From contig JAAFKJ010000087.1 of assembly GCA_021399395.1 (NCBI GenBank), forward strand, positions 1 to 25,759: a stretch of 25,759 nucleotides of DNA, written 5' to 3'. A model generated the notes under the pieces. It ran no database searches and was not told the origin of the DNA. It saw only the letters and a program-made list of their open reading frames with translations. Below, piece by piece: positions 13,504-21,478 of the stretch (positions within the stretch are counted from its first letter, which is position 1; each line of letters begins with the position of its first letter). The position numbers and the translations under genes were made by a program. The stretch is from Candidatus Heimdallarchaeota archaeon. Lineage in GTDB: Archaea > Asgardarchaeota > Heimdallarchaeia > Heimdallarchaeales > Heimdallarchaeaceae.

Positions 13504-14754
13504 TCACACTAATTTTATGCGAATATATAAATCAACTTCCTGCTTATTTTTCAAGACCCCACTAACATAGAAAGTCTCATAATTACGGATGCCTTGCTCT
13601 CCTAAGGTTAAATCCAATTTTACTTCTTCAGGATCTTTCTTATCTATTTTCCAGAAAGATGGTAAAAAGTCTAAATTATATTCATATCCCTTATTCTTAA
13701 TTATTGAAAGAATGTTTTCAACAGTTGTTGATCTTGGAAGTTTTAATCTTTCAATTAAAGCTGCGTTTTTACCACAAAGAACACATTTCTTATTTGGAGG
13801 TTTTTCGAAGTAGAAAAACTTACCAACCAAGCCATTATAAATTACGTATTCAGCATTTACAGTACCTAGTTCAATTCCCTTCACATGATGCAAAAGTTTC
13901 AGTGCTTCTTGCGATTGAAGTGATGCAATTACAGCATTTATCGTAATAATAGTAGGATCATGTTGATCTACCATCTTGACTACTTCGTCAATAGAGAACA
14001 GGTTTTCTTTTGGAAAATGCTCTTTAGTTAGGTTATTTGCATAGTTCAAAACAACTTTCATTTCAGCTTGAACACCTGTATCTGGTGGTCTATTATGTTT
14101 CGATTCAAAGTATAATTGTCCTTTCAATAGACAATGTGATCTTTTTCTTGGGATTCCTACAAGAGTACATGCTGCTAATGTTTCTCTTTCTCTCTCAGGT
14201 TGTGGGTCACATTGAAGACATGCATTTTGCCCTGGAAGGTATGTATAGACATGTCCATAATACGTTACTGTCCCTCCATCTATCAAGGGTTTCTTATAAT
14301 GAACAGCTCTTCTGTTGAGTTCTCCTCTTGCAGTTACTGAATCCAAACCCGAGATTAACAAATCAGCTGAAACATAGATTTCTGGATCAACATCTTCTAG
14401 ATTTGAATGATGCCAGATGTATCTACAATAAGGATTTATTCGTTTAAGAGTTCTTGCTGCAACTCTAGATTTAGGTTCTCCTTCATCGGCATCAGAAAAT
14501 AAAATTTGTCTATTTAGATTTGAGTATTCAATTATATCTAAATCTATTAGATGTAATGTTCCAACACCAGCCATTGCAAGATTCTTCGCAACTTCAGTCC
14601 CTAAACCACCAATTCCTACAATGACGACTGTAGAATCTTTCAAAGCTTTCTGATTCCATCCAGGTAATCTTAGTTGTCTATCAAATCTTTTTCTTTCTTC
14701 TTTTGAAAATGTCTCATCAAAAAAATTAGACTTGTTTTCTTTGTTTTTACTCAT
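13504..14754 (-). CDS. Ubiquitin-like activating enzyme E1 (ThiF/UBA family, UBA3/UBA2-like architecture)
   Basis: RFDRQLR, GIGGLG, DLDIIEYSNLNRQILF, PLIDGGT; Zn pairs CLQC and CVLC; catalytic Cys region AACTLVGIPRKRSHC; C-terminal ubiquitin-fold-like domain (TTVENIL...LTLGEQGI). Confidence 0.93.
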   Translation of the reverse strand: MSKNKENKSNFFDETFSKEERKRFDRQLRLPGWNQKALKDSTVVIVGIGGLGTEVAKNLAMAGVGTLHLIDLDIIEYSNLNRQILFSDADEGEPKSRVAARTLKRINPYCRYIWHHSNLEDVDPEIYVSADLLISGLDSVTARGELNRRAVHYKKPLIDGGTVTYYGHVYTYLPGQNACLQCDPQPERERETLAACTLVGIPRKRSHCLLKGQLYFESKHNRPPDTGVQAEMKVVLNYANNLTKEHFPKENLFSIDEVVKMVDQHDPTIITINAVIASLQSQEALKLLHHVKGIELGTVNAEYVIYNGLVGKFFYFEKPPNKKCVLCGKNAALIERLKLPRSTTVENILSIIKNKGYEYNLDFLPSFWKIDKKDPEEVKLDLTLGEQGIRNYETFYVSGVLKNKQEVDLYIRIKLV

Positions 14755-14802
14755 TATTGTACATCTCTTAGGATTCTATTTAACATAAATTATTCTTGTT
14801 TT

Positions 14803-14856
14803 TGAAAAAATGAAAAGAAAGGAGAAACTATTTTCTTTCAAAAAGAAAAATAGTTT
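14803..14856 (-). terminator. Hairpin plus U-rich tract between the Ubl and E1 genes
   Basis: Imperfect inverted repeat AAACTATTTTCTT/AAGAAAAATAGTTT (14825-14856), followed on the minus strand by CTCCTTTCTTTTCATTTTTTC. Confidence 0.5.
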
Positions 14857-14860
14857 TAGT

Positions 14861-15220
14861 TTATCCAGCTGTTGAGACAGGGATAAGTAGAATAGTGTCT
14901 CCGTCTTCCACTCCATAATCTGCTAATGTATCGTCAGGATCGCAGGTTCTTCCAGCATGTGACAAGTGAAATTCATCTGGAGGTAATCCAAAGATTTGAC
15001 TGACAGTATATTTGATATCACCAACGGGCGCATCAGTAGCTACGACAAGCTTTTCCTGTTTTGGACTTGGTCCAATTGTACTTTGGAAATAAACGCTAAT
15101 CTTCTTACTTGCAGGAGTCTTAGACTTTTCAGGAGTTTTAGAGATAATTTCGTCTTCTAATACCTCTTCTTCTTCTTCTTCAAAAGATAATTCTTCAAAT
15201 TCTTCGCTCATTTTTATCAT
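14861..15220 (-). CDS. Ubiquitin-like protein with acidic N-terminal extension, ending ...STAG
   Basis: GLPPDEFHLSHAGRTCDPDDTLADYGVEDGDTILL aligns with ubiquitin [35 protein letters not shown]; adjacent to E1. The true start may be the second Met (15211). Confidence 0.92.
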   Translation of the reverse strand: MIKMSEEFEELSFEEEEEEVLEDEIISKTPEKSKTPASKKISVYFQSTIGPSPKQEKLVVATDAPVGDIKYTVSQIFGLPPDEFHLSHAGRTCDPDDTLADYGVEDGDTILLIPVSTAG

Positions 15221-15454
15221 TCCTAGTTTAATACAACATGTGTATATCTGTTTGGAATATTAAAAAATTACCCTTTTAGGTATAAAAAACATTCTTATTT
15301 AGTAAGATAAATTAGAAAAACAGATTGATAGTATCTAAAAATCTATAAAACACATTGAATATATCCTAAAATGGGAATAATCAGTTACAATTAGATGTAA
15401 AAAATTGAGTTGTTAAGTAATCTATGAAAGGCAAACTAAGAGTGTGACTTACAG

Positions 15455-16183
15455 ATGAATGATAAAAACAAAAAGAAACGACCTTCATCCAAGAAACCGA
15501 GGCAAAAAATCCCTATAGATTCGAAGATACCTCAACAAAAAAAACCATCTAGCAAAATACCGAAACAAAGAGTTAGCGATGAAGACCTGTTACCACCAAG
15601 AAGACAGAGATCTAAAAAAGAAACTCCTGCCCCTAGTAAGTCAAGGCTAAGACAAGATGAGATAAGAAAATCAAACAAAGGAGTAGCTAAACAAGAAATT
15701 TACACTAAGAAACCAAAAGGAGAGAGATTTGTTGATCAACAGAAGAGAAGTAAGGGTATTCCGAAACAGAAGATTCCCAAAACTAAAATCCCAAAACAGG
15801 ATCAATTAGACGAAGCTAAAGAGAAGAATATCGTTCCAGAGGATGAAGAAACAAGGAAAAAAGAAAAGCGAGAATCTATTCCACCAAGGAGGGAAAAGTT
15901 CAAAGAAATAGAAACTCTAGATTCAAAAGCTGTTGAGAAGGAAGAGAGAGAGAAGAAAGAAGATCATCCTCCTGCAAACAACAAAGACCAATTTTCTGAA
16001 ACTCAGAAGCATGAATCAAAGGCTTTACCCAAAGATGAAAGAGTAAGAGAGAAAAAGGAAAGAGAAGCACCAGCTGCTAGAGAAATTAGTGAGATTATTG
16101 AGGAGAAGCGTCCTACTCAAAAAACTCCTAGTCAAAAATATCCTCAACAGACTAAAAGACCTAAACAAAAGAAACCTAAGTGA
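15455..16183 (+). CDS. Lys/Glu/Arg/Pro/Gln-rich low-complexity, probably disordered protein with KIPKQ-like repeats
   Basis: 242-aa ORF almost lacking hydrophobic core residues; repeats SKIPQQK, SKIPKQR, KGIPKQKIPKTKIPKQ. Confidence 0.7.
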   Translation: MNDKNKKKRPSSKKPRQKIPIDSKIPQQKKPSSKIPKQRVSDEDLLPPRRQRSKKETPAPSKSRLRQDEIRKSNKGVAKQEIYTKKPKGERFVDQQKRSKGIPKQKIPKTKIPKQDQLDEAKEKNIVPEDEETRKKEKRESIPPRREKFKEIETLDSKAVEKEEREKKEDHPPANNKDQFSETQKHESKALPKDERVREKKEREAPAAREISEIIEEKRPTQKTPSQKYPQQTKRPKQKKPK

Positions 16184-16212
16184 TGGTCCTTTTGTTAAAG
16201 CATTTTTTCAGT

Positions 16213-16806
16213 TCACACAAATAGCATTAAGAGTGAAGAATAGAAATAAACTACTGCAAATACCATCAAGAAGAGATTCTCTAAGAGGAATATAGATGTT
16301 AAAATGTAGGTTGTTGGTATAATCAACAGGAGTAGAAAACCAAAAAGTTTAGGAGGGATTCCTTTTTCACTTGTGCCTTTCATTCTGATGAAAGGATATC
16401 TGATGAAAGTTCTGAATATTAGAAAATTGCTGAAGATGTAGTAAGGTAATAGAATGAAATCCACAATATTAATGTAAAAATAATATGTGGTAGTACCAAC
16501 ATCAAAAGTACTTGTCGAAATTAAGTTTGAACCATAATCATAAATTCCTAGAAGAAATTGAGTAAGAACAACAATCACAGGAATTAGCGGGACAATTAAC
16601 ACAAAAAAAACTTCGTTGAATGTAGCATTGTGTTTAAGATAGTATATACTTCGTATCATAATGAATAGTGTTAGAAAAGCAAATATTGCTGCCATTATGA
16701 AAATCTTCCCCATATCACTGTTTTCTTCTATGAAGAAATAGATAGATACACCTATCAACGATAAAGAAATAAGAAACGCAGTGGAGAGTTGTGTAATGGT
16801 TCTCAA
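16213..16806 (-). CDS. Multi-pass membrane protein (~6 TM), RING-less paralogue of the membrane domain of 17198..18328
   Basis: TTG start after AAGGTG; hydrophobic throughout; shares SD, YxKHN, FxLxxP, NxxxxxLxP and PxI...G motifs in the same order as the RING protein. Confidence 0.78.
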   Translation of the reverse strand: MRTITQLSTAFLISLSLIGVSIYFFIEENSDMGKIFIMAAIFAFLTLFIMIRSIYYLKHNATFNEVFFVLIVPLIPVIVVLTQFLLGIYDYGSNLISTSTFDVGTTTYYFYINIVDFILLPYYIFSNFLIFRTFIRYPFIRMKGTSEKGIPPKLFGFLLLLIIPTTYILTSIFLLENLFLMVFAVVYFYSSLLMLFV

Positions 16807-17038
16807 AGTAACACCTTCTTCTTTTATAGTTCTTACATCCTAATTTTTAAATTATTGTATATGTTTTTTTTGGCATTTTACTATTCTTTTATGGGTTTAT
16901 ATACTCAATTAGCTTTCGATAAATAGAGAGGATTTACATCTTAAAAAGCCTATGCGACCACCTCCAATTGGATTGTGGTCAAGCTTAAAAAGAAGATGAA
17001 TCCAACTCAAAAACAACTATCTATATATGAGAAAGTTC

Positions 17039-17104
17039 CAAGCGATCCGAAAACCGTACCTAAACGTACGGTGAACGGGGTAGGAGGGTATGTGATGTAC
17101 CCCC
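17039..17104 (+). repeat. Structured intergenic element copy A (candidate ncRNA or REP/MITE-like repeat)
   Basis: GC-rich CAAGCGATCCG-[ACCGTAC/GTACGGT hairpin]-GAACGGGGTAGGA-[GGGTAT/GTACCC hairpin]; homologous to 20493-20555. Confidence 0.65.
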
Positions 17105-17197
17105 GTAGAATTTGTGAGGACCATAGGGAATGACACACACAACGTCTACGAAATGGCTCAACTATATTTGACTAATATGCAAACATGACTAGTCACA

Positions 17198-18328
17198 TCA
17201 TAGCTTCTCAATCACTTTCTCTATATAGATTTTTACAGTTACACGATATTTTGGATTATTAACGTATCTAGTTGAGATAGGTTGATTACATCTTGCACAC
17301 AATCTAGATTTCTGGAACCAGTTAAGAAATTCATCTTCATGTGCTGGATATTTGCAATTAGGACATAGTATTATTTTTCTTGATTCTTTTTTATTAAAAT
17401 CCATATAACAAATAATACATTTCATCTCTTCTTTCTTTGGAGTACCAATTGGAAACATGCTTTTAGTAACAGTAGTTGTGGTTTTAGTAGTCTTTACCAT
17501 TTTTCTTTTCGATGATGGTACGTCAATACCTGGGGCAACTCTAGCGGAAGAGGTAGTACTTCTAGTAGCTCTCCTTGTAGTAGACCTAGAAGTTGTTGAA
17601 GTGCTTCTGGATCTTGTTGGTACAGACCTTGTCCCACTTCTCGAAGATGCTGTAACTTGACCTCTTCTTCGAGTTGCACTTGAAGATCCTGTTGAGGTAG
17701 TTCTTCTTGTAGAACTTCTTGCTGAGACTGTTACCTCTCTTCGTGACTTATTAAATGCAACAATAACAAAATATCTGAAAATGTAAACTAAGTATAATAT
17801 AACAAAGATGAAACAAACAAAATCTATTTGCCAATTGATAAAGAAACCAATCAAGAATGTCAGAATAAAGAAAGAATGGAGCAAGAAAGGAATTTTTTTA
17901 CCTCTATTTATTTTTCTGTTGATAGCAATTCCAGGCCATTTTCCTGAATAGAACTTACTGAAGAATATGGAGAGGATAATTACAGGAACTATCAAAGAGA
18001 TAGAAATTAAATTGAAGAACATTAGTTCCGAACCTCCACTTGACCGAATTGTGAAGATTTCAACAGTTAATGCAACAGGAGAGATGTAGTTTCCCATTAG
18101 CAAGACTGCATAAGGGAGTAGTAGAAATTGACTACTAGCTAAAATGGAGTTGTGTTTCTTATAGTGTCGTCTTTCCAGGAGAAATTTTAGAGCTGCTACT
18201 GTATACAGTGTAATAAAGAAAATCATTAACGTTGTTGCCAAGTCACTTTGAATAATTAGATATAGAATCCCTACGGTTAAACCTACAATTGATATCGCTA
18301 AGTAGGTTTTCCAATTATTCAATTCCAA
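17198..18328 (-). CDS. Multi-pass membrane RING-variant protein (putative E3 ligase)
   Basis: About 6 N-terminal TM helices, a long S/T/R-rich linker, and C-terminal CIIC-x14-CPNC-x3(KYPA)H-EDEF-LNW-x6-CARC; immediately downstream of E2 and JAMM genes. Confidence 0.85.
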   Translation of the reverse strand: MELNNWKTYLAISIVGLTVGILYLIIQSDLATTLMIFFITLYTVAALKFLLERRHYKKHNSILASSQFLLLPYAVLLMGNYISPVALTVEIFTIRSSGGSELMFFNLISISLIVPVIILSIFFSKFYSGKWPGIAINRKINRGKKIPFLLHSFFILTFLIGFFINWQIDFVCFIFVILYLVYIFRYFVIVAFNKSRREVTVSARSSTRRTTSTGSSSATRRRGQVTASSRSGTRSVPTRSRSTSTTSRSTTRRATRSTTSSARVAPGIDVPSSKRKMVKTTKTTTTVTKSMFPIGTPKKEEMKCIICYMDFNKKESRKIILCPNCKYPAHEDEFLNWFQKSRLCARCNQPISTRYVNNPKYRVTVKIYIEKVIEKL

Positions 18329-18350
18329 CTTTATACATCTCTAAATTCTT

Positions 18351-19070
18351 TTAATCCTTATTCAGCTTATTTTTCATGAACATGTTAATTGACTCAAAAC
18401 ATGCTTCACTGCTCATGCCTTTAATCTCGCAAGAAAGTTCATAGTAATTCTTTCTATCTCGATGAATTCGAAATACTCCTACCCCATAATTATCTGGAGC
18501 AATCATCAGGGGGTCGATGACTAGAGCTATTGACTTATTCCAAAATGTCTGATATCTACGATGTGTTTGGAAGTCATCACCACTGAGAAATGGTGTATAA
18601 CTTGGATGTGAATGAGCCCAACCTATGATAAAATGTTCGTTATCTTTTTTATTGAATATTTCAGTGAAAATCCTTTGATCTACTATCTCTACACTTACAG
18701 CATCACCTTGGTCAACAGGCCAATAGTCTTCAACATACACCTGTTCTAATGGAGTATCTTCGTGTCGTATTTTACCTGTCAATAGGCCTATAATTTCTAC
18801 CCACTCACTTTTTGGGATTCCCTTGTTAGCATAGGTTAAGGAATGTTTAGCAAGTTTGAGATAGGCTTTAGGATTTATCATTATTTCAGATCTTGTTTGT
18901 ATTTGAAGTGCTTCTTCTGTTATTGATTCAACACTAATGTCCTCTGAACTTTCTACTTGATCTTCAAAGATTTCATCTATTTTATGAAGACCTAGTGCTT
19001 TTTCTATTGCTTCAACTTTTTTCAAAAGAATTTTGTATTCTTCTGGAAGATTGTCTTCTTCTTTTCCCAT
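18351..19070 (-). CDS. JAMM/MPN+ metallo-isopeptidase (Rpn11/CSN5-like)
   Basis: VEIIGLLTG (catalytic Glu), GWAHSHPSYTPFLSGDD (HxH-x7-S-x2-D), ALVIDP; GGTGA SD upstream. Confidence 0.93.
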   Translation of the reverse strand: MGKEEDNLPEEYKILLKKVEAIEKALGLHKIDEIFEDQVESSEDISVESITEEALQIQTRSEIMINPKAYLKLAKHSLTYANKGIPKSEWVEIIGLLTGKIRHEDTPLEQVYVEDYWPVDQGDAVSVEIVDQRIFTEIFNKKDNEHFIIGWAHSHPSYTPFLSGDDFQTHRRYQTFWNKSIALVIDPLMIAPDNYGVGVFRIHRDRKNYYELSCEIKGMSSEACFESINMFMKNKLNKD

Positions 19071-19100
19071 TTTTTAATCACCTAAATTTGTGAAGAGTTT

Positions 19101-19631
19101 TTACCAGAAAGACTTTGCATATTTCTTGCTGATAGTATTTGCTTTTTTAATGAATTTCTTCTTATTATTTAAAAATTCCAAAGCAGCTTCTTTATTGAAA
19201 ACATCCTTTGGATTAACATAAGCTCCATCTATATTGAACATAGCTAGAATTGAGTGTACAACTGTAGTGATATTCTTTGCAGGTGACCATCCATCATGTT
19301 TTCCTATTAACTCATTGTCAACTAGAGCGAGACAAATGTTACGCTTCTTTGGATATTCTTTAGGATTTGGCCAGAAATTAGGATGCCAAATTGGTGTATG
19401 TAGTCTTACAAATGGAGGTTTCATAGGATAATTTGGTCCAAAGAATATCTCCAACTTATATTTTCCTCCAGCATATGGAGTGCCTTTTGGACCTACAAAC
19501 CCGACTGCAAGATGATCCATAGACTTCTTCTTTACAGGAAAAGATTTAACTTGAGCTATTATCCCTTCTTTGTGCAATTTTCTAAGTGCATCATAGTCTT
19601 TTATTACGCGCTGTTTTCGCATTATTGCCAC
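19101..19631 (-). CDS. Ubiquitin-conjugating enzyme E2 (UBC fold)
   Basis: GPKGTPYAGGKYKLEIFFGPNYPMKPP, TPIWHPN, catalytic ICL, WSPA, NKEAA. Confidence 0.95.
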   Translation of the reverse strand: MAIMRKQRVIKDYDALRKLHKEGIIAQVKSFPVKKKSMDHLAVGFVGPKGTPYAGGKYKLEIFFGPNYPMKPPFVRLHTPIWHPNFWPNPKEYPKKRNICLALVDNELIGKHDGWSPAKNITTVVHSILAMFNIDGAYVNPKDVFNKEAALEFLNNKKKFIKKANTISKKYAKSFW

Positions 19632-19777
19632 CGTTTATTTTATCAAAATCAATTCGGTTTGAACCCAGAATCAACAAGTATTTGTTCGAGGATTAATACT
19701 TAAACTTTCTTTTAAAGGTATACAAATTCAATTATAGCATTCATCTTCCTTAGTATTAGATAAAAGATAATAAAGGG

Positions 19778-20347
19778 TTAGTAAAGCTGCCATAATACAT
19801 ATTGTTCTGAACCTAGTTGAAGTAAAAATCTTTGCTCCAAAGATGCTTCTTCTATAATAGCAAATTCTTTTTCAGAAGGTCTCATCCCTAGATAGAACAG
19901 TTTTTCATATGGCCAGTCATTCTTGAACCATTTAATCAGCTGTTCTAGTATTTTGATGAAATACCCTTGATTCCATCCAGTTGGTGTAATCCAGAAAGAG
20001 ATAGCAGCATCATTATCTACCAACTCTAGATGATCACACATTCTATCATTGAAAAATGCGAATTTAAGAAATGGTGAGATAGGTTTTACAAATATACAAC
20101 CATAACATACTGTTTCTTCTTCATCTAAAATGGTATAAGCAAATTCTATTCTGTTATTGTGATCTAGTTCATGTTTAGCTATTTGTTCCAAGTTTACCTC
20201 TTCAGGAAAACCTTCTGGTCTGAAACCACTTTCAATCGCAGCTTGATAATCTAGCTCATTATCTGTACTTCGAAGTTGTCTTATCTTAATACCATTGAAA
20301 ACTAACTCTTTTGGTACTTTTTTATCTTCAGGGAAGAACGAGTTCAT
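19778..20347 (-). CDS. GNAT-like N-acetyltransferase (RimJ/RimL-like)
   Basis: IRQLRSTDNELDY, FAYTILD...YGCIFVKP, ISFWI, WFKNDWPY pattern. Confidence 0.6.
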   Translation of the reverse strand: MNSFFPEDKKVPKELVFNGIKIRQLRSTDNELDYQAAIESGFRPEGFPEEVNLEQIAKHELDHNNRIEFAYTILDEEETVCYGCIFVKPISPFLKFAFFNDRMCDHLELVDNDAAISFWITPTGWNQGYFIKILEQLIKWFKNDWPYEKLFYLGMRPSEKEFAIIEEASLEQRFLLQLGSEQYVLWQLY

Positions 20348-20492
20348 GGTCTGATACTTTTTCCAACCCTTATAAGTGGTTTCTTGTACATTTTTTGGTG
20401 TTTAAATAAGCCAGTGTAGAATATATGTTGAAGGATTGTAGCTATGCACCAACTTCATGGTGATTCTCGGGGTTACATCCAACGAACAGTAA

Positions 20493-20555
20493 CAAGCGAC
20501 CCGTAAGCATCTTGCAAGAAGATGTGGGCGGTGTAGGAAGGGATGTGACGTCCCT
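20493..20555 (+). repeat. Structured intergenic element copy B (candidate ncRNA or REP/MITE-like repeat)
   Basis: CAAGCGACCCG-[CATCTT/AAGATG hairpin]-GGGCGGTGTAGGA-[AGGGATG/CGTCCCT hairpin]; homologous to 17039-17104. Confidence 0.65.
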
Positions 20556-20701
20556 ATGATGTGTCCTAGACACTTCTAAAGAATTTGTACAAAATTCATG
20601 TCATAAACATTAACAAATCAGTATATTGAACTGTCTAAATGTGAGATGTCTCAATTCCTCTGAAGATAGATTTAATTAGTCAATTCCATAGAATCTAACC
20701 G

Positions 20702-21478
20702 ATGGAAATCATTGACGCTCATGCCAATATACTTTCTTCTCCAGATTACGTTCTTGAACTAATGACTGAGATGAATAGGTTGGAAATTTCCAAAGCTTGT
20801 ATAAGCGGTTTGGGTTCAATGTTCAATTCTGTAAGCAACAAAGAAATTCTCAAAATTGTCGATGATTTTTCTCCCAGATTTGTTGGTGCTTATTTTGTTC
20901 GACCTGGAGTAACTAATGTCATGGAGATACAAGATGCCCATTCCTTAGGCTTTCGGATGCTCAAAGTAGCTATTCCAAAGAAACCTTACAATGATCAAGC
21001 TTTCCTTCCACTCTGGGGAGCTGCTCAAAGATTAAATATGCCGATCCTTTTTCATACTGGCCTAATAACTGTTGCAGAAGCTTCCCCAAAAGATATGATT
21101 TTATCATTAGATATGCATCCTCTAAGAATCGAACCAATAGCTAATTCCTTCCCAGATCTAAACATCATTCTTTCTCAACTTGGCGGTCATTGGAACAGAG
21201 ATGCAGCTGAACTCGCCCGGATGAGGGCTAATGTATATGTTGATCTAACTGGAGAACAAGATGGTTGGCGTCAAAGGATAGATGTAGAGGGATTAGAGAA
21301 GTATCTTTATTGGCCAAATGCTTTCCAAGATTTAGTTTTTGGTACGAATACTGAACCATCACAAATTGAACAGATTCTCAGCGAAGATAGAAATAGATAT
21401 ACTAAACTTAATCTTGATGAAAATACTAAGGAAATGATATTCTCGGGAAATATTAAGAAAATGCTTGGAATACATTAA
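20702..21478 (+). CDS. Amidohydrolase_2-family TIM-barrel protein with degenerate metal ligands
   Basis: IIDAHAN, PILFHTG, FPDLNIILSQLGG, NVYVDLT, LVFGTN, IFSGNIKKMLG. Confidence 0.85.
   Translation: MEIIDAHANILSSPDYVLELMTEMNRLEISKACISGLGSMFNSVSNKEILKIVDDFSPRFVGAYFVRPGVTNVMEIQDAHSLGFRMLKVAIPKKPYNDQAFLPLWGAAQRLNMPILFHTGLITVAEASPKDMILSLDMHPLRIEPIANSFPDLNIILSQLGGHWNRDAAELARMRANVYVDLTGEQDGWRQRIDVEGLEKYLYWPNAFQDLVFGTNTEPSQIEQILSEDRNRYTKLNLDENTKEMIFSGNIKKMLGIH

Follow-up and report, generated by a model that had tools for sequence, protein, structure and literature searches.

A repeated two-hairpin motif in Heimdallarchaeial DNA is very probably the omega-RNA core of a tnpB-only mobile element family

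The DNA analysed here, referred to throughout as the window, comprises positions 1 to 25,759 of contig JAAFKJ010000087.1 (assembly GCA_021399395.1), a stretch of 25,759 nucleotides (nt) from a Candidatus Heimdallarchaeota archaeon. The genome that holds it, G000, spans 2.8 Mb in 201 contigs at 34% guanine plus cytosine (GC). Our subject is a motif of two hairpins that occurs twice in the window, on either side of part of a ubiquitin gene cassette. An initial annotation had described these two copies as diverged members of a structured element of about 65 nt, and its coordinates and sequences for both proved correct on reading. We call these stretches the cores:

17039..17104, plus strand: core of copy 1; outer stem 17046-17049/17076-17079, hairpin 1 17053-17059/17066-17072, hairpin 2 17086-17092/17096-17102; covariance-model score 90.4 bits
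20493..20555, plus strand: core of copy 2; outer stem 20499-20504/20528-20534, hairpin 1 20507-20513/20519-20525, hairpin 2 20539-20545/20549-20555; covariance-model score 77.2 bits

In each copy an outer stem closes hairpin 1 and hairpin 2 follows, and the alignment of both stretches gives 76% column identity across 112 columns. The plus-strand folding energies are -25.2 kcal/mol for copy 1 and -24.7 kcal/mol for copy 2 (z -2.0 and -3.4); on the minus strand most of the copy 2 fold is gone, leaving just -13.7 kcal/mol. The GC content of the cores (0.39-0.42) is higher than that of the neighbouring DNA (~0.29-0.33), so the GC-rich islands seen in the initial annotation exist, with a modest contrast. 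A search of the whole window against Rfam at gathering scores returned 0 matches, and at E<=10 nothing in Rfam overlapped either copy within 16800-20800. A scan for transfer RNAs (tRNAs) and transfer-messenger RNAs detected none.

The pairing is conserved across copies. A strict pattern search of the genome found five copies, as against none in a reversed control; hairpin 1 has a different sequence in each of the five, and its pairing is kept in all. The covariance model that had been proposed as a check was built on 29 own-genome copies. It gave 30 matches in that genome and, in the window, the two copies alone, on the plus strand at 90.4 and 77.2 bits, the next best hit reaching 10.1 bits. 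Across 28 distinct own-genome sequences the three helices are paired in 95.2% of 501 cells compared with 83.4% in column shuffles (the observed value is attained by none of 500), and 66 cells are changed on both sides compared with 19.7, figures that are not to be read as probabilities. Slid controls were 33-50% paired. Double changes occur in 9 of the 18 base pairs of the core, and RNAalifold predicted the same helices independently from the own-genome cores. The paired hairpins with compensatory substitutions first described from two copies are thus borne out in the wider set. Because G·U pairs make up 88 of ~477 paired cells (summed from the per-pair table), the folded strand is the sense strand of the tnpB genes described below; together with the weak minus-strand fold of copy 2, this upholds the earlier assignment of the structure to the plus strand. 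The best argument for conservation of the structure is qualitative: in copies without an open reading frame (ORF), hairpin 1 has lost 2 or 4 nt without losing its pairing.

The cores belong to larger units. Once the flanks were extended, four copies could be aligned over ~290-390 nt, and many nhmmer matches span just the 3' 170 profile positions, starting at the two-hairpin motif. Into seven own-genome copies runs a same-strand frame of 420-461 amino acids, which reaches ~100-150 nt into the element and carries the motifs GAIDLG, IPEDYTSK and INADVNAAYNI. In the C131 copy this frame matches Cas12f1-like_TNB (PF07282, 7e-12) and OrfB_IS605 (PF01385, 2.7e-9), both above the Pfam cut-offs. Given these motifs and scores, the frame is TnpB, and the link to tnpB genes that the initial annotation had suggested looking for is present in the form of a gene that runs into the core. 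The product of the full-length gene has ~430 amino acids, and the genome holds 20 matches to the TNB domain. In full copies the core doubles as coding sequence for the TnpB C-terminus (...KSDPKA.P.R.VNGVGGYVMYPRRV), and beyond the stop codons, which are variable, nucleotide conservation continues as far as a shared end, ...CATCAT.

The same layout recurs in public genomes, where a scan with an alignment of five own TnpBs found 164 relatives, 80 of which supplied the locus counts. Assemblies titled Candidatus Heimdallarchaeota account for 79 of these 80 listed loci; the other sits on a 2.8-kb contig titled Cloacimonadota and is probably misbinned. The core lies at the tnpB 3' end in 75 of the 80, and in the loci whose sequences were printed the tails reach the shared ...ATCAT, with flanks diverging beyond it. 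In G000 itself, nhmmer found 35 matches at E<=1e-5, of which 11 abut contig ends, in keeping with a multi-copy mobile element. BLAST found the element in 22 of 24 genomes of the genus and in 0 of 16 genomes from other families of the order. When 151 genomes sampled from the phylum were scanned with the covariance model, 14 gave matches, almost all of them in a single family: 11 of 13 in the family of the window and, more weakly, 2 of 5 in one other, with none elsewhere. The tnpB family is expanded in this Heimdallarchaeote and its relatives.

The omega-RNA of TnpB lies at the right end of an IS200/IS605-type element, where it overlaps the tnpB 3' end on the sense strand. The arrangement found here makes it very probable that the two-hairpin motif is the 5' part of such an omega-RNA scaffold, at the right end of a tnpB-only (IS1341-like) family of IS200/IS605 type, and that the window copies are non-autonomous, gene-less derivatives of that family. 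Coding alone does not explain the conservation, because it extends past the stop codons, ORF-less copies keep the helices and the reading frames are inconsistent. Run on the whole scaffold, RNAalifold returned the core helices alone; differences in the tails from one subfamily to the next kept it from giving one fold for the entire scaffold.

The limits of the two window copies were set by comparison with empty sites, copy 1 having been aligned with 14 other short elements and the surrounding operon compared with nine relatives. The features so placed are:

16889..16892, plus strand: TTAT target motif (TAM) directly 5' of copy 1; on the minus strand, the original TAA stop of the RING gene
16893..17201, plus strand: copy 1, a 309-nt ORF-less TnpB-derived element (A-type) with promoter, 5' module, core and tail, right end CATCAT and no left-end hairpin; nhmmer E 1.2e-76 against a 4-copy profile
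16896..16903, plus strand: TATA box of copy 1, TTTATATA, homologous to the tnpB promoter and aligned with GGGGGCTTTTATAGG upstream of the tnpB ATG in full elements
16923..17034, plus strand: 5' module, exclusive to ORF-less A/C-type elements; hairpin GACCAC-C-TCCA..TGGA-TT-GTGGTC at 16956-16980; nhmmer E 2.3e-17
17105..17201, plus strand: 3' part of the scaffold and right end of copy 1, from alignments of 18 A-type tails; CATCAT at 17196-17201, right-end hairpin weakened
17202..17221, plus strand: putative guide flank of the copy 1 omega-RNA, placed by analogy with IS200/IS605 omega-RNAs; antisense to the last RING codons
20370..20373, plus strand: TTAT target motif of copy 2, within a putative TATA box (TTTATAA, minus strand) ~26 nt upstream of the GNAT-like start
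20374..20604, plus strand: copy 2, a 231-nt ORF-less E-type element with left end, TATA-like box TTTAAATA (20401-20408), 5' module (~20414-20492), core, tail and right end ...CATGTCAT
20556..20604, plus strand: E-type tail of copy 2; hairpins GTGTC-CTA-GACAC (20561-20573) and GAATTT-GTACA-AAATTC (20581-20597), then ATGTCAT at the right end; the copies of this tail are too similar to each other for covariation testing
20605..20624, plus strand: putative guide flank of the copy 2 omega-RNA, placed by position

The repeated unit is therefore not the ~65 nt of the initial annotation: the elements measure 309 nt and 231 nt and are of different subfamilies. The site of copy 1 is empty (...TTTTAT/AGCTTCTCAATC, the slash marking the junction) in five of the nine relatives and, with diverged flanks, in two more; one is unclear. 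At the same TTAT junction (the orthologue of 17201/17202), genome G014 carries a member of another subfamily (L158, C97; tail ...GACAGAATCAAATCAT), either because the site has been used repeatedly or because an early insertion has since given way to another. Copy 2 is flanked as TTAT/.../AAACATTAAC, and its empty counterparts read CTCTTAT/AAACGTTAACAATTCA in G001 and CTCTTAT/AAATTTTAACAAATCA in G021. Comparison of empty and filled sites revealed no target duplication for either window copy, and neither shows the terminal inverted repeats with target duplication of classical miniature inverted-repeat transposable elements (MITEs). In 60 aligned TnpB loci, the tetranucleotide just outside the left end is TTAT 46 times, ATAT 6 times and CTAT 4 times; the first figure is alignment-based and replaces a crude regular-expression count of 33 of 60. 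A left boundary of copy 1 at 16827, taken from the alignment of short elements, was dropped, since the empty site in G021 shows 16828-16892 to be ordinary flank. Copy 1 starts directly at its promoter (16893) and therefore lacks the left-end hairpin of its relatives; judging from the promoter sequence, its transcription would start at ~16925-16930.

The two insertions flank four genes of a complete eukaryote-like ubiquitin cassette (13504-20347, minus strand), whose presence is in keeping with Heimdallarchaeial origin:

13504-14754, minus strand: ThiF/E1
14861-15220, minus strand: ubiquitin-like protein
17198..18328, minus strand: RING-like gene, membrane-anchored (weak Pfam match, below the curated cut-off); its TGA stop, the complement of 17198-17200, comes from the last 4 nt of copy 1
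18351-19070, minus strand: JAB deubiquitinase
19101-19631, minus strand: E2
19778-20347, minus strand: GNAT-like gene (weak Pfam match, below the curated cut-off)

The RING gene ended in CT/ATAA before the insertion and ends in CT/ATGA after it, both reading Leu-stop; the terminal TCAT of copy 1 supplies the TGA, so the RING protein is unchanged. Copy 2 is inserted at the TTAT of the putative TATA box, in the stretch 20345-20373, where the first bases of the element partly rebuild TTATAAG. The initial annotation had noted that the two copies bracket RING-JAMM-E2-GNAT in direct orientation. They do so, although the RING and GNAT assignments are weak Pfam matches; because each copy has empty sites of its own in relatives, they represent independent insertions and the bracketing is coincidental.

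Both window copies belong to gene-less lineages whose left end, promoter and right end are homologous to those of full tnpB copies. The lineage of copy 1 is represented by 15 aligned short elements from 7 of 25 genomes of the genus, each ordered as left end, tnpB-type promoter (B recognition element and TATA box), ~115-nt leader, core, tail and right end. The more abundant E-type lineage of copy 2, with its own left end, TATA-like box, leader and tail, has matches in 14 of 25 genomes; three near-identical copies from G000 were aligned. No frame longer than 48 amino acids passes through the core in any of the 11 E-type loci examined. The copy 1 lineage has no conserved start or frame: frames through the core range from 21 to 99 codons, begin with ATG in just 7 of 15 elements and are inconsistent in length, so a conserved mini-ORF was rejected as unsupported. 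Empty orthologous sites, together with copies dispersed over 7 of 25 and 14 of 25 genomes, support mobilisation of these gene-less elements.

Together with what is described for other TnpB systems, this layout suggests how the family may work. The TnpB guide-RNA model reportedly goes back to the original ISDra2 work. In full copies, the tnpB messenger RNA (mRNA) would run through the core, which also encodes the C-terminus, to the right end ...TCAT. Reasoning by analogy from TnpB systems already characterised, we would expect the guide RNA to consist of the scaffold and ~16-20 nt of flank beyond the right end, and a TnpB-RNA complex might cut TTAT-flanked empty sites and so favour re-copying or retention of the element, a homing role. 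In gene-less copies, the TATA box of the element itself would drive transcription of leader module plus scaffold, and these copies would depend in trans on binding by TnpB made from full copies elsewhere in the genome. There is precedent for this last step: palindrome-associated transposable elements (PATEs) "often encode omega-RNAs", and these are acted upon in trans (Meers et al. 2023, 10.1101/2023.03.14.532601), and standalone omega-RNAs are described as mobilised and working in trans (Altae-Tran et al. 2023, PMC10691335).

Several observations weigh against an omega-RNA assignment. None of the 25 genomes of the genus (72-92% complete) gave a match to Y1 TnpA (PF01797), although the control fired in 6 of 14 reference genomes; this result is no proof of absence because these are incomplete metagenome assemblies from which small multi-copy genes may be lost. 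The enzyme expected to mobilise an IS200/IS605 element is thus missing, which we treat as a lead, and the linkage to HUH or TnpA genes raised in the initial annotation failed to appear in any of these 25 genomes. The TnpB lacks zinc-ribbon cysteines in alignment to Cas12f chains, so its activity is not assured. Production of the RNAs is something that we infer by analogy, and they match no Rfam family, including the haloarchaeal tnpB-overlapping families of sense overlapping transcript RNAs (sotRNAs). Copy 1, without a left-end hairpin and with a weakened right-end hairpin, may be a fossil. Finally, relatedness among the own-genome sequences inflates the significance given by the shuffle control.

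Hairpins in the top strand of the DNA take part in IS200/IS605 transposition, as is also described by Meers et al. (2023, 10.1101/2023.03.14.532601). It is conceivable, and in our judgement quite improbable, that the core hairpins act in this way, as single-stranded DNA recognised by a transposase not yet identified, like subterminal IS200/IS605 hairpins. DNA tolerates G·T wobbles, the same strand would be involved and the family is clearly mobile, all of which such a role would accommodate. However, the core hairpins are ~100-160 nt inward of the right end, and the usual place of transposase hairpins is taken by a separate hairpin at ~15-40 nt. In copy 1 the left-end hairpin is lost yet the core is intact, the core is the best-conserved part even where the ends differ between subfamilies, and its position fits the omega-RNA scaffold of TnpB systems. 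Domestication is very unlikely too: the gene-less elements would then be host small-RNA genes that provide guides for a TnpB-derived regulator or act as antisense regulators of the adjacent ubiquitin genes. TnpB-derived RNA-guided regulators are known (10.1101/2023.11.30.569447), copy 1 keeps its promoter and RNA region with the left end lost and has a 3' flank antisense to the end of the RING gene, and copy 2 sits within the putative promoter of the GNAT-E2-JAB-RING operon. Yet G021 and G001, the closest relatives that possess this operon, have no insertion at either site. Members of the same families are also found dispersed over unrelated loci and at contig ends, and the TnpBs keep their alignable RuvC acidic motifs.

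Least credible is the possibility that the copies are decaying C-terminal fragments of tnpB in which the hairpins are incidental to conserved codons, even though full copies encode a conserved ...SDPKA..R.VNGVGGYVMYP and copy 1 keeps an open 45-codon ATG frame in the TnpB frame. Such decay would leave unexplained the double compensatory changes in 9 of 18 pairs, the shortening of hairpin 1 by non-multiples of three with pairing kept in ORF-less copies, the lack of a conserved start or frame among the 15 short elements, and the conservation of short lineages, promoter retained, in 7 of 25 and 14 of 25 genomes. We retain the omega-RNA scaffold as the most probable identity of the motif.

Dozens of polymorphic TnpB-element insertions are present per genome despite the lack of a detected Y1 TnpA in the genus. 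Other candidate mobilisers were considered. Four IS607-like serine-recombinase genes are present, but their elements, which carry 660-amino-acid TnpBs, end ...AACGTGTGT, an unrelated sequence, and a search for Cas1 as mobiliser found none. In the TnpBs themselves, the RuvC acidic motifs are kept where aligned (GAIDLG, PEDYTS, NADVNAA), and a search of solved structures returned weak Cas12f matches only (E ~6e-4). The protein of L046:247-1551:- and its relatives read YTSKSSFLDNE... and ...FTSALGH where Cas12f chains have TSQRC..SECG and CRACG. Zinc-ribbon loss has been noted in some TnpB branches (Altae-Tran et al. 2023, PMC10691335).

In the lineage of copy 1, the leader is not mere filler. 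Over the 15 elements its extended stem (columns 20-75) is 91.8% paired compared with 86.7% in shuffles, with 14 double-change cells compared with 5.3; an alternative stem pairing columns 5-10 with 17-22 is just 68.9% paired and fits less well. The leader profile matches 23 of 85 TnpB loci, always at ORF nt ~560-650, with E values of 6e-4 to 0.15 that amount to weak homology. The matching segment of tnpB contains a hairpin, GAUAAC-C-UCGG...CCGA-UU-GUUAUC, at codons FVDNLGNQPIVIKDHG just after RuvC-I:

ORF nt ~575-625, sense strand, outside the window: intragenic hairpin in the tnpB genes of L045-L049 and L058-L136, homologous to window 16956-16980

Over 77 distinct genes this hairpin is 98.2% paired. 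One of its pairs joins the third codon positions of a Leu and a Pro codon, both synonymous sites, and is C-G in 62 genes, U-A in 11 and U-G in 4, with 0 mismatches. A tree made from the flanking gene sequence requires at least 9 changes in the first of the two columns and at least 7 in the second; of 6 independent pairs, an average of 4.7 have the partner changing in step and none has it changing the opposite way (median sign-test p 0.06), so the tree-based covariation is suggestive only. A lower stem around the hairpin, 69.8% paired, is not claimed. The gene-less lineage keeps the architecture as GACCAC-C-UCCC...GGGA-UU-GUGGUC: nearly all of tnpB has been lost, and this segment has been retained, with compensatory changes, between promoter and omega-RNA. 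It is possible, although we hold it only tentatively and lean against it, that the TnpB systems of this Asgard lineage use a second, so far undescribed cis-acting RNA module, the intragenic hairpin kept by this long-lived gene-less lineage. If so, the module could nucleate or regulate the assembly or processing of the TnpB-RNA complex and, together with the Y1 transposase not found in the genus, would suggest an atypical element life cycle. In AmaTnpB, an mRNA region inside the coding sequence, next to RuvC-II, affects the TnpB-omega-RNA complex at the RNA level and inhibits cleavage, and pairing between this region and the omega-RNA has been proposed (Nety et al. 2023, PMC10278001). Both regions lie inside the tnpB coding region, which makes that one a possible analogue and the nearest precedent in the excerpted literature; unlike it, the hairpin described here is a self-contained stem-loop just after RuvC-I.

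The hairpin repeats are a known kind of mobile element, seen here as the TnpB omega-RNA core of a fresh family, and no new RNA class. In common with tnpB-only (IS1341) omega-RNA elements of the IS200/IS605 group, the family has OrfB_IS605 and TNB domains and a structured sense RNA region that covers the 3' end of the gene and reaches as far as the right end; like them it also inserts 3' of TTAT, a constant 4-nt motif, with no duplication of the target, and has asymmetric ends with a subterminal hairpin and many copies per genome. It differs from typical IS200/IS605 elements in a TnpB without any zinc-ribbon cysteines and in the Y1 TnpA not found in 25 genomes of the genus, and is known here from sequence alone. 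Unlike described omega-RNAs, it has no Rfam or primary-sequence match, and its host lineage is Heimdallarchaeia. The haloarchaeal sotRNAs (Rfam RF02656/RF02657) are sense transcripts that overlap the 3' part of tnpB and are now regarded as omega-RNAs (PMC12558985); they belong to a different phylum and differ in sequence, the window copies being unmatched in Rfam at E<=10 over 16800-20800.

PATEs and standalone omega-RNAs (10.1101/2023.03.14.532601; PMC10691335) are the closest counterparts of the window copies: gene-less and mobilised, with ends common to tnpB elements, the omega-RNA retained and TnpB needed in trans. The derivatives here differ from PATEs in carrying an archaeal TATA promoter, in the conserved structured leader that the A/C lineage took from mid-tnpB and in the lost left end of copy 1. 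The initial annotation had offered a structured non-coding RNA or a repeat family of the repetitive extragenic palindrome (REP) or MITE kind. What stands is a repeat whose structure is maintained and which, like a MITE, is mobile and non-autonomous; a free-standing 65-nt RNA and a REP do not stand. With REPs, bacterial interspersed mosaic elements and classical MITEs the window elements share short length, repetition, hairpin formation, intergenic position and dependence on others, and they differ in lacking terminal inverted repeats with target-site duplication, in the RAYT/HUH gene not found and in a motif that is internal to an element of 231-309 nt and, in the parental copies, overlaps a tnpB gene. 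The initial annotation's claim to novelty, which it had tied to the lack of a match to a catalogued insertion-sequence end or Rfam family, largely falls with the match to a catalogued kind of end, although no Rfam family is matched. In the excerpted literature on PATEs, on TnpB in Asgard archaea and Heimdallarchaeota and on TnpB mRNA processing, this family's RNA is not described (the supplements of PMC10691335, which possibly list these clades, lie outside that scope).

A conspicuous structured repeat absent from libraries is now identified as a TnpB omega-RNA core, and the TnpB element family accounts for many contig breaks in Heimdallarchaeial assemblies. The covariance model, exact boundaries, TTAT motif and natural pairs of empty and filled sites are inputs for testing an Asgard TnpB as an RNA-guided nuclease. 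The promoter and intragenic module in the gene-less lineage, the undetected Y1 and the zinc-ribbon-less TnpB are leads, rather than results, on the persistence of tnpB-only elements and on omega-RNA biogenesis.

Some members of the family show features of position or sequence of their own. The short elements L143 (G011:C105) and L148 (G013:C88) lie directly after a tRNA 3' end (...GGTTCAAATCTCCCTCCCCGCACCA, then ATTTAT, then the element). In L175 (G014:C81), the right end of an IS607-like element is joined directly to an E-type fragment (...CATAACGTG/CGTAAGC...), the two mobile elements being nested or recombined. In A-type elements such as L045 and L046, TTTTGTCATG in the left end is, by eye, complementary to CATGACAAAA in the right end on one strand, an arrangement that is unusual for IS200/IS605 and could permit the ends to pair in single-stranded DNA.

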